In this document: in pieces, positions 5,811 through 6,641 of the stretch | Position numbering within the stretch: position 1 is the first letter of the stretch | Layout of the letters: every line of letters begins with the position of its first letter | Sequence record: NC_031103.1 | Source: Escherichia phage vB_EcoM-UFV13 | Length of the DNA: 64,000 nt | Reading direction: 5' to 3' (one strand) | Program-made: the position numbers and the translations under genes | Notes under the pieces: generated by a model | Database searches by the model: none | Told to the model about the DNA's origin: nothing | What the model saw: only the letters and a program-made list of their open reading frames with translations

Positions 5811-5886
5811 TGGTCGAGGCAGTAGGGATCGAACCTACGACCTAGGACTTAGAAGGTCCTTGCTCTTCCTTCTGAGCTATGCCTCG
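5811..5886 (-). tRNA. tRNA-Arg (anticodon UCU)
   Basis: Manual cloverleaf: acceptor CGAGGCA/TGCCTCG, anticodon loop CTTCTAA, T-arm GTAGG-TTCGATC-CCTAC, encoded CCA. Confidence 0.8.
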
Positions 5887-5890
5887 TATT

Positions 5891-5965
5891 TGGCGGACGT
5901 GATAGGATTCGAACCTATAACCAATCGCTTAACAGGCGATCGCTCTGCCATTGAGCTACACATCC
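5891..5965 (-). tRNA. tRNA-Asn (anticodon GUU)
   Basis: Manual cloverleaf: acceptor GGATGTG/CACGTCC, D-stem GCTC/GAGC, anticodon stem ATCGC/GCGAT with loop CTGTTAA, T-arm ATAGG-TTCGAAT-CCTAT, encoded CCA. Confidence 0.7.
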
Positions 5966-5969
5966 AAAT

Positions 5970-6056
5970 TGGTGGGGAGTGATGGAGTCGAACCACCCGA
6001 GTCGCAATGACAATGGATTTACAGTCCACACCGCTACCTCTACGGGATAACTCCCC
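5970..6056 (-). tRNA. tRNA-Tyr (anticodon GUA), class II with long variable arm
   Basis: 87 nt; acceptor GGGGAGT/ACTCCCC, anticodon loop CTGTAAA, variable-arm hairpin, encoded CCA; D-stem imperfect. Confidence 0.6.
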
Positions 6057-6068
6057 TAATTCATAATT

Positions 6069-6143
6069 TGGTGGCCCTGGGTGGAATTGAACCACCATCT
6101 GGCGATTATGAGTCGCTTGCTTGAACCTTCCAGCTACAGGGCC
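6069..6143 (-). tRNA. tRNA with CAU anticodon (Ile lysidine-type, as the T4 tRNA-Ile, or elongator Met)
   Basis: acceptor GGCCCTG/CAGGGCC, anticodon loop CTCATAA, T-arm GGTGG-TTCAATT-CCACC, encoded CCA. Confidence 0.75.
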
Positions 6144-6144
6144 T

Positions 6145-6220
6145 TGGTGCTGATTGACGGAATCGAACCGCCGACCTTCTCATTACAAGTGAGTTGCTCT
6201 ACCTACTGAGCTAAATCAGC
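6145..6220 (-). tRNA. tRNA-Thr (anticodon UGU)
   Basis: acceptor GCTGATT/AATCAGC, D-stem GCTC/GAGC, anticodon loop CTTGTAA, encoded CCA. Confidence 0.8.
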
Positions 6221-6225
6221 AAAAC

Positions 6226-6315
6226 TGGCGGAGGCGATAGGATTTGAACCTATGAGTCGCCGGAGCGACTGCCGGTTTTCAAGACCGGTGCATTAAACCA
6301 CTCTGCCACGCCTCC
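6226..6315 (-). tRNA. tRNA-Ser (anticodon UGA), class II
   Basis: 90 nt; acceptor GGAGGCG/CGCCTCC, anticodon stem CCGGT/ACCGG with loop CTTGAAA, long variable arm, encoded CCA. Confidence 0.8.
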
Positions 6316-6317
6316 AG

Positions 6318-6391
6318 TCTCCATACAAGGATTTGAACCTTGGACCTCCTGATCCCAAATCAGGCGCTCTACCAAACTGAGCTACACGGAG
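6318..6391 (-). tRNA. tRNA-Pro (anticodon UGG)
   Basis: acceptor CTCCGTG/TATGGAG (two G-U pairs), anticodon loop TTTGGGA, T-arm CAAGG-TTCAAAT-CCTTG; CCA not encoded. Confidence 0.75.
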
Positions 6392-6401
6392 TAAATTAAA
6401 T

Positions 6402-6475
6402 TGGAGCGGATAATGAGAATCGAACTCACATCATCAGATTGGAAGTCTGAGGTAATACCATTATACGATATCCGC
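6402..6475 (-). tRNA. tRNA-Gly (anticodon UCC)
   Basis: acceptor GCGGATA/TATCCGC, anticodon loop CTTCCAA, T-arm GTGAG-TTCGATT-CTCAT, encoded CCA. Confidence 0.8.
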
Positions 6476-6480
6476 AAATT

Positions 6481-6567
6481 TGGTGCGAGAAGTGGGACTC
6501 GAACCCACAAGGAAATCATTCCGCAGCATTTTAAGTGCTGTGCCTTTACCAATTTGACCATTCTCGC
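6481..6567 (-). tRNA. tRNA-Leu (anticodon UAA), class II
   Basis: 87 nt; acceptor GCGAGAA/TTCTCGC, anticodon stem CAGCA/TGCTG with loop CTTAAAA, long variable arm, encoded CCA. Confidence 0.8.
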
Positions 6568-6568
6568 G

Positions 6569-6641
6569 CTGGGAATAAAGGACTCGAACCTTTGCATCCT
6601 GGAATCAAAATCCAGTGCCTTACCAACTTGGCTAATTCCCA
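6569..6641 (-). tRNA. tRNA-Gln (anticodon UUG)
   Basis: acceptor TGGGAAT/ATTCCCA, anticodon stem CTGGA/TCCAG with loop TTTTGAT; CCA not encoded. Confidence 0.75.

Follow-up and report, generated by a model that had tools for sequence, protein, structure and literature searches.

The transfer RNA (tRNA) gene array of Escherichia phage vB_EcoM-UFV13 occupies positions 5811-6641 of the 64,000-nucleotide (nt) stretch of sequence record NC_031103.1 analysed here (the window) and consists of ten tRNA genes on the minus strand, the strand of all features located below. We hold with high confidence that it is an ordinary tRNA operon of the genus Tequatrovirus (T-even-type phages), uninterrupted and without an inserted homing endonuclease, and that its tRNA-Tyr and tRNA-Asn genes are genuine functional members. 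This assignment is based on the presence of the genes, their folds, their identity to annotated relatives, an intact site for the homing endonuclease SegB and the codon demand of the phage, all of which were observed here. The array is a real feature and was correctly described in a first-pass annotation made from the sequence alone; it is ordinary and not new, already annotated and published. As a discovery it carries little weight, since hundreds of GenBank records already carry its annotation and it appears in papers of 2008, 2010 and 2017.

Screening of the 64-kb window with ARAGORN delivered exactly ten tRNA genes, arranged head to tail in the transcription order Gln, Leu, Gly, Pro, Ser, Thr, Ile(CAU), Tyr, Asn and Arg, with the same coordinates and order as in the first-pass annotation. 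All ten pass the curated gathering score (29 bits) of the Rfam tRNA model RF00005, a profile of cloverleaf sequence and structure. Nine of them score 59-74 bits (E values between 1e-11 and 1e-15), the exception being Tyr. A CCA end is encoded in eight of the ten genes and missing only from Gln and Pro, whose tRNAs must depend on the host CCA-adding enzyme after processing. The Gln and Leu genes abut (spacer of 0 nt), and the spacer between Pro and Ser is 1 nt. Four genes, each found by ARAGORN and Rfam, are identical to those of T4: the class II gene tRNA-Leu(UAA) at 6481-6567 (87/87 identical to T4, T2 and T6), tRNA-Gly(UCC) at 6402-6475 (identical to T4, T2 and T6), tRNA-Pro(UGG) at 6317-6391, which has no encoded CCA, and the class II gene tRNA-Ser(UGA) at 6226-6315; the latter two are identical to T4 and T2 and missing from T6. 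In anticodons and order the first seven genes and Arg match the T4 set, as stated earlier, but the sequences agree completely only for Leu, Gly, Pro and Ser. The earlier count also holds in that T4, with its eight tRNAs, has neither Tyr(GUA) nor Asn(GUU); its record shows segB in this place.

In its position (downstream of the trna.2 homologue and upstream of rnaD, rnaC and e.8), strand, promoter region and gene order the array agrees with the Tequatrovirus tRNA operon. The 1.8 kb around it match more than 1,000 phage records, and 396 phage records cover at least 80% of the 831-bp array. The 182-bp Tyr-Asn segment matches 647 records, 394 of them at a coverage of at least 80%, with 90-100% identity and mostly labelled tRNA-Tyr and tRNA-Asn. 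Shigella phage Sf23 (MF158046) shares an 831-bp array that is 100% identical, with the same ten genes annotated by tRNAscan-SE, whereas its flanks differ, an extra 516-nt open reading frame (ORF) being located upstream of Gln in Sf23. The first 25 kb of the window are about 96-97% identical to the best genome matches, several T4-like phages, and together with the differing flanks this identifies the genome as a different mosaic. In RB7 the array is 98.9% identical in a single aligned piece. Published counts of tRNA genes are 8 for T4, 9 for T2, 7 for T6 and 10 each for RB3, RB14, RB18, RB26 and LZ2 (Petrov et al. 2010, PMC2993671 Table 2); phage SH7 has the same tRNA set plus His(GUG) (PMC5238451), and tRNA-Met(CAU), Tyr, Asn and Arg were described in T2L (Brok-Volchanskaya et al. 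2008, PMC2330249).

The array of T4 (NC_000866) reads Gln-Leu-Gly-Pro-Ser-Thr-Ile-(segB, 666 nt)-Arg-rnaD-rnaC, that of T2 (AP018813) Gln-Leu-Gly-Pro-Ser-(402-nt ORF)-CAU-Tyr-Asn-Arg-(351-nt ORF), and that of T6 (AP018814) Gln-Leu-Gly-Thr-CAU-Tyr-(666-nt segB homologue)-Arg. In phiC600P9 a homing-endonuclease gene stands in place of Pro, and REP4 has eleven tRNAs, with His between Asn and Arg. Judged by these gene orders, the window array is the uninterrupted form, and in relatives single tRNA genes are replaced by endonuclease genes or unknown ORFs. The unusualness that the first-pass annotation implied was not borne out: the same ten-gene form is common in T-even-type phages, and T4 is a depleted genome. 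The tRNA content of the genus is thus poorly represented by T4, the ten-gene array being the form without a homing endonuclease. Ten is not the maximum for such arrays; the tRNA-His(GUG) gene of REP4 and SH7 is located between Asn and Arg, about 113 nt after Asn. The anticodons of Tyr, Asn and His are all of the form G34-U35-N36.

The tRNA-Asn(GUU) gene (5891-5965; 75 nt, encoded CCA, G73) was found by ARAGORN and has the highest Rfam score in the array, 74.1 bits. It forms a standard class I cloverleaf with all four stems predicted, and 15 of the 21 pairs covary through changes on both sides when divergent homologues are compared. The gene is identical to that of T2 (75/75) and shares 52/75 positions with the Asn gene of plasmid pEC881_2.

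The tRNA-Tyr(GUA) gene (5970-6056) is a class II gene of 87 nt with an encoded CCA and an atypical D-arm, found by ARAGORN and identical to the T2 gene at 86/87 and to the T6 gene at 85/87 positions. The lengths, encoded CCA ends and clean arms reported earlier for Tyr and Asn agree with the ARAGORN results, with A73 in Tyr and G73 in Asn and with covariation in the arms. The Rfam score of Tyr, 30.2 bits against the cut-off of 29, is a marginal pass and is low because the D-arm is non-canonical, a canonical D-arm being taken as a 2-nt linker, a D-stem of 3-4 bp and nucleotide 26. On our own reading by homology to T5, the Tyr D-arm would consist of a linker of 3 nt and a stem of 3 bp with an additional C-U mismatch, and nucleotide 26 would be missing. 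The D-stem is missing from the RNAalifold consensus of the divergent homologues, and the minimum free energy fold is not a cloverleaf. The low score and the unrecovered D-stem, together with the dispensability of the tRNA region in the laboratory (PMC2330249), are what would be expected if Tyr, and possibly Asn, were a decaying pseudogene or a tRNA-like stable RNA that persists only as a spacer or homing-endonuclease target. We consider this very improbable. Tyr is accepted by ARAGORN, and its acceptor, anticodon, variable and T arms are intact, with compensatory changes across the T5, T6, plasmid and host homologues; in the comparison with these T6, T5, plasmid and E. coli genes, 6 of the 20 pairs stay paired through changes on both sides. 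The class II identity elements are present, namely GUA at positions 34-36, a long variable arm, A73 and CCA. GUA, a long variable arm and A73 are the recognition elements of the E. coli tyrosyl-tRNA synthetase. A D-stem of 3 bp can be drawn by the T5 homology, the tRNA-Tyr of T6 was seen on a northern blot and is biologically active (PMC13096335), and Asn has the top score of the array. The reading of Tyr as a pseudogene, raised by the 30-bit score, was rejected on the covariation, the intact identity elements and the published expression of the T6 homologue. Neither gene is one of the annotated stable RNAs, since the homologues of rnaD and rnaC are separate and map at 5690-5809 and 5545-5683. 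Charging of Tyr with tyrosine and its use in translation are predicted by analogy to the 85/87-identical T6 tRNA, which is expressed and rescues infection (PMC13096335).

The variable arm of Tyr forms a conserved 3-bp stem, is 2 nt longer than that of the host and is identical in the window, T6, T5 and plasmid pEC881_2. Relatives of the gene occur in rV5-like phages of about 136 kb (about 95% identity) and in T5-like phages (about 85% identity). In 269 of 5,426 complete E. coli genomes a gene with 94% identity is located on plasmids of about 72-112 kb, never on the chromosome. In the one plasmid examined, pEC881_2 (NZ_CP019027), the gene belongs to an Asn-Tyr-Thr-Ser cluster with an integrase and a DNA ligase nearby, a setting that suggests a phage-plasmid. 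As judged from these relatives, the Tyr family evidently moves between unrelated mobile elements.

A recent capture of Tyr and Asn by vB_EcoM-UFV13 from the E. coli chromosome would agree with the anticodons and discriminator bases, which are the same as in the host genes, yet it is the least credible of the readings considered here. Among 5,426 E. coli genomes no chromosomal BLAST match to Tyr was found at E<=1 and no match to Asn covering at least 80% of its length; a host origin of the two genes was ruled out on these grounds. Identity is only 54/85 to E. coli tyrT and 46/75 to E. coli asnT, and the Tyr-Asn block is common to hundreds of phages at 90-100% identity. Concerning the direction of change within the genus, the tRNA-Ile gene of T4 stops at the discriminator base and T4 and T6 diverge exactly there, T6 continuing with CCA, the spacer, Tyr and segB. 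The segB genes of T4 and T6 are near-identical apart from their first codons and the 5' untranslated region, which differ. A blastn-short search around segB in T4 found no remnant of Tyr or Asn, only generic T-loop matches. Because of the break at the 3' end of T4 tRNA-Ile and the distribution among relatives, a loss of Tyr and Asn in T4 would be favoured over a gain elsewhere.

The Asn gene contains the preferred recognition site of SegB, a selfish GIY-YIG homing endonuclease of T4, as the 27-bp sequence GGTTCGAATCCTATCACGTCCGCCAAA at 5889-5915, which comprises the 3' part of Asn and 2 nt beyond it. This 27-mer was rebuilt from the text of PMC2330249 (core GGTTCRANTCC, a length of 27 bp, a CCAR end and five differing positions). 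One exact copy occurs in the window; the 27-mer is also found in T2 and is absent from T4 and T6. It differs from the Ser-gene sequence of the window at exactly positions 6, 16, 18, 26 and 27, those that separate the preferred SegB site from the Ser-gene site (PMC2330249). According to the same source, SegB cuts map to the 3' ends of tRNA genes, and RB1 and RB3, like T2L, have no segB and contain the preferred SegB site in their tRNA-Asn gene. The core motif GGTTCRANTCC occurs in 10 copies in the window versus 0.16 expected by chance, eight of them in tRNA T-arms, one in the rnaC homologue (5557-5567) and one at 31131-31141, far from the array, where ARAGORN finds no tRNA. There is no ORF between the CAU and Arg genes, hence no segB at the locus. 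With the 27-mer intact and segB missing, vB_EcoM-UFV13 is a predicted recipient for segB homing, and T4 would be predicted to convert this locus in a mixed infection.

Codon use was compared between ORFs called mechanically and identically in the window (59 ORFs, 18,708 codons) and in E. coli K-12 at 100-150 kb (41 ORFs, 14,727 codons). In this comparison of one 64-kb window rich in structural genes with one 50-kb host stretch, Tyr accounts for 41.9 versus 25.5 codons per 1000 (1.64-fold) and Asn for 58.9 versus 37.3 (1.58-fold). Of all twenty amino acids these two are enriched most, and among their codons AAT reaches 3.18-fold and TAT 2.33-fold. Among the codons of the other eight tRNAs the values are 7.3 for AGA, 5.8 for ATA, 4.0 for TCA, 3.8 for GGA, 3.6 for ACA, 3.0 for TTA, 2.1 for CCA and 1.5 for CAA. 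The ten tRNAs with their wobble partners cover the 12 most enriched codons, if ACT, TCT and CCT are assumed to be read by wobble of a modified U34. These enrichments all fit a role in supply alone, in which Tyr and Asn only meet the demand of an AT-rich phage (36% G+C) and the other eight tRNAs serve A-ending codons that are rare in the host; we regard this as possible, with considerable doubt. No gene of the array encodes a tRNA-Lys, yet Lys is enriched 1.54-fold and, at 70 per 1000 codons, is the amino acid used most of all. The anticodons GUA and GUU repeat those of the only host isoacceptors, which are encoded in multiple copies (asnT, asnU, asnV and asnW; at least tyrT and tyrV), and the codons that they read by Watson-Crick pairing, TAC (0.80-fold) and AAC (0.68-fold), are used less by the phage than in the host sample. 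Both genes are missing from T4, one of the T-even relatives that match the first 25 kb of the window within a broad range of 90-99% identity. Supply alone would furthermore not require the divergence from the host genes, to which Tyr and Asn are only 61-64% identical. The earlier suggestion that the extra tRNAs adjust decoding to the codon usage of an AT-rich phage is therefore sound in that Tyr and Asn are the most over-used amino acids, but supply is not the sole and maybe not the main explanation.

The alternative is that the Tyr-Asn block, with His in relatives, primarily replaces or out-competes host tRNAs cut by defence nucleases. The proposed targets are the variable arm of tRNA-Tyr, cut by Septu and by the PtuAB of retron-Eco7, and tRNA-Asn, cut by PARIS AriB between positions 40 and 41. 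We entertain this explanation seriously, though tentatively. Septu cuts tRNA-Tyr in the variable arm; T6 expresses its tRNA-Tyr, overexpression of which rescues T6 from Septu, and deletion of the tRNA region sensitises T6, while T4, which has no tRNA-Tyr, cannot escape (Chihara et al. 2026, PMC13096335). The tRNA-Tyr of T5, with whose variable arm that of the window is identical, resists retron-Eco7 through its distinctive variable loop (PMC13096335). Near-identical Tyr genes in unrelated phages and on the plasmids of about 72-112 kb, beside Asn and Thr, point in the same direction. As to Asn, PARIS AriB cuts the host tRNA-Asn(GUU) as a secondary target, at U36AAUC/C41, and the tRNA-Asn of T5 contributes to rescue (PMC12409363). 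Positions 39-41 are G39-C40-G41 in the window, U39-C40/C41 in the host, G-U-U in T5 and C-C-A on the plasmid, so that the Asn tRNAs of the window, T5 and the phage-plasmid all lack U39 at the AriB cut. This shared loss is compatible with evasion of AriB but a weak argument, as position 39 covaries with position 31. The Tyr of the window is 85/87 identical to a validated T6 tRNA; its Asn is not close to the validated Asn of T5, the missing U39 being the one feature in common. Rescue from retron-Eco7 is a matter of dosage and promoter strength, and the host tRNA-Tyr achieves it as well when its promoter is strong (Azam et al. 2024, PMC11555353). The segB gene of T6 enables amplification of Tyr under Septu pressure (PMC13096335), and the window has no segB beside the array to drive it.

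Nothing speaks against the identification of the array and its genes; the points on the other side concern function. Any benefit is conditional, since T4 has neither gene and its tRNA region was described as non-essential (PMC2330249). Septu cleaves the T6 tRNA-Tyr like that of the host, and wild-type T6 with its single copy is still restricted, amplification or overexpression being needed (PMC13096335). The codon demand was measured on one stretch from each side. We keep the assignment of both genes as genuine members, which would add copies of the tRNAs that are most raised in phage demand and that can be depleted by host tRNA-cutting defences. Resupply against defence nucleases appears about as likely as simple supply, and both could apply together. 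From its tRNA-Tyr, vB_EcoM-UFV13 is predicted to behave towards Septu and retron-Eco7 more like T6 than like T4.

The tRNA-Gln(UUG) gene (6568-6641; ARAGORN, Rfam 67.4 bits), which has no encoded CCA, carries a variant anticodon arm. Compared to T4 and T6 it shows eight substitutions at tRNA positions 27, 28, 30, 32, 38, 40, 42 and 43 (window 6599-6615), so that 8 of the 17 anticodon-arm positions differ from T4 versus 0 of the 56 positions elsewhere (Fisher p = 1.8e-6). The substitutions in the anticodon stem compensate each other completely (CTGGA/TCCAG versus TAGCA/TGCTA), and in the loop C is replaced by U at positions 32 and 38. The allele of the window is also found in Sf23, REP4 and phiC600P9, and the Gln gene of T2 has the T4-type anticodon arm. 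Both alleles are widespread in phages; over the 141-nt query, at least 143 phage records reach an identity of 99% or more. The pattern resembles that of diversifying selection or of an exchanged anticodon arm. We know of no nuclease that would explain this dimorphism of the Gln anticodon arm, and a search of an eLife paper of 2023 on anticodon-loop evasion for the Gln, Asn or Tyr tRNAs of T-even phages gave nothing relevant. The tRNA-Thr(UGU) gene (6145-6220; ARAGORN and Rfam) has three differences from T4, at positions 27, 43 and 45 (window 6176-6194), so that the lowest pair of the anticodon stem, C27-G43 in T4, is an A-A mismatch here. PARIS AriB has host tRNA-Thr(UGU) among its main targets (PMC12409363). 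Over the whole block from Gln to Thr (497 nt) there are 14 differences from T4, 11 of which lie in or beside the Gln and Thr anticodon arms, ten within positions 27-43 and one at Thr position 45.

A bolder proposal would join these observations: Tyr and Asn, with His in REP4 and SH7, would chiefly form a counter-defence cassette and not an adaptation to codon usage, Tyr acting against Septu and retron-Eco7 and Asn, with G39 and G41 on either side of the AriB cut, against PARIS-like nucleases; the same conflict would lie behind the differences in the Gln and Thr anticodon arms, and SegB, which has its preferred site in Asn and stands in place of Asn in T6 and of Tyr and Asn in T4, would trade an anti-defence gene for its own spread. 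We judge this proposal as a whole unlikely. Its Tyr part is already published for T6; the Asn part and the allele dimorphism would be new. The residual interest of the locus lies in the incidental observation that the differences of Gln and Thr from T4 cluster in the anticodon arms only.

The tRNA gene with the anticodon CAU (6069-6143) is labelled Met by ARAGORN and is a T2-type allele, 75/75 identical to T2 and with 47 matches and 25 mismatches to the Ile gene of T4. The determinants of TilS are an Ile2-type anticodon arm and the acceptor pairs C4-G69 and C5-G68. The CAU gene has C4-G69, C5-G68 and A73, and all 17 nt of its anticodon arm agree with host tRNA-Ile(CAU). The best match of the gene is annotated as tRNA-Ile in 5423 of 5426 E. 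coli genomes, at 81.6% identity. The record of REP4 labels an identical CAU gene tRNA-Ile, and those of Sf23, T2 and T6 label theirs Met. AUA is the codon enriched 5.8-fold in the ORFs of the window over the host sample. By these sequence determinants the gene is of the Ile2 type, a lysidine-dependent reader of AUA with lysidine predicted at its anticodon, and the Met label is a common mis-annotation. The first-pass annotation had called it Ile(CAU), which describes the gene better than the Met label of ARAGORN and several records, and this correction is of practical use.

The tRNA-Arg(UCU) gene (5811-5886; ARAGORN and Rfam) is also a T2-type allele, with 75 matches and 1 mismatch to T2 and with 49 matches and 21 mismatches to T4 and T6. 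By comparison with these phages the locus is a mosaic in which T2-type CAU, Tyr, Asn and Arg genes are joined to T4/T6-type rnaD and rnaC, in place of which T2 has an ORF. As the T2-type Arg is followed by a T4/T6-type rnaD, a recombination junction has to be placed at the 3' end of Arg or immediately beyond it.

Upstream of the array, a MotA-type middle promoter is predicted at 6711-6735, read by eye and from its identity to T4, with TGCTTTA at 6735-6729, a 12-nt spacer and TATTAT at 6716-6711. This layout of TGCTTTA, spacer and TATTAT fits the pattern of MotA-dependent middle promoters. In the 119 nt upstream of Gln only 3 positions differ from T4. A scan for sigma-70 promoters found no strong promoter upstream, only one weak 9/12 match at 6776-6748. 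In T4 a middle promoter just upstream of the tRNA cluster gives rise to one precursor that ends after species I RNA (PMC2330249). Downstream of Arg, a homologue of rnaD (T4 stable RNA species 2) is located at 5690-5809, with 103 of 118 alignment columns identical to T4, followed by a homologue of rnaC (T4 stable RNA species 1) at 5545-5683, with 136/139 positions identical to T4 and the T-arm-like sequence GGTTCGAATCC at 5557-5567. Position 5593 within the rnaC homologue is an ambiguous N (G in T4 and T6), a sequencing or assembly ambiguity in the source record. An Rfam search with the rnaD and rnaC homologues gave no family match, only sub-threshold chance matches. A strong intrinsic terminator with a 10-bp stem (7 G-C pairs) and a subsequent T run is predicted 3' of the rnaC homologue at 5471-5494, a position that agrees with the termination point in T4 (PMC2330249). 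We infer co-transcription, processing, charging and physiological benefit for this array: a single precursor, starting from the promoter at 6735-6711 and ending at 5494-5471, probably comprises the ten tRNAs together with the rnaD and rnaC homologues; host enzymes would process it, and host synthetases would charge its tRNAs.

Among the known systems the array resembles that of T4 in its promoter region, in the identical Leu, Gly, Pro and Ser genes and the near-identical Thr gene, in gene order, in rnaD and rnaC and in the position of the terminator. It differs from T4, which has segB in place of Tyr and Asn, other alleles of Ile(CAU) and Arg, and a tRNA-Ile without an encoded CCA. Its alleles of CAU, Tyr, Asn and Arg differ from those of T2 by one base at most, and both phages have the intact SegB 27-mer in Asn, whereas in T2 a 402-nt ORF replaces Thr and a 351-nt ORF stands where the window has rnaD and rnaC. 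T6 has the same Tyr (85/87) in the same position after the CAU tRNA; it is without Pro, Ser and Asn and carries segB after Tyr, while the window has no adjacent segB. T5 (NC_005859), from an unrelated family, has a Tyr with an identical variable arm and T-arm and an Asn that also lacks U39 beside the AriB cut site. It differs in its more than 20 dispersed tRNA genes, among which Tyr and Asn are not adjacent, and its Asn differs from that of the window at most stem positions.

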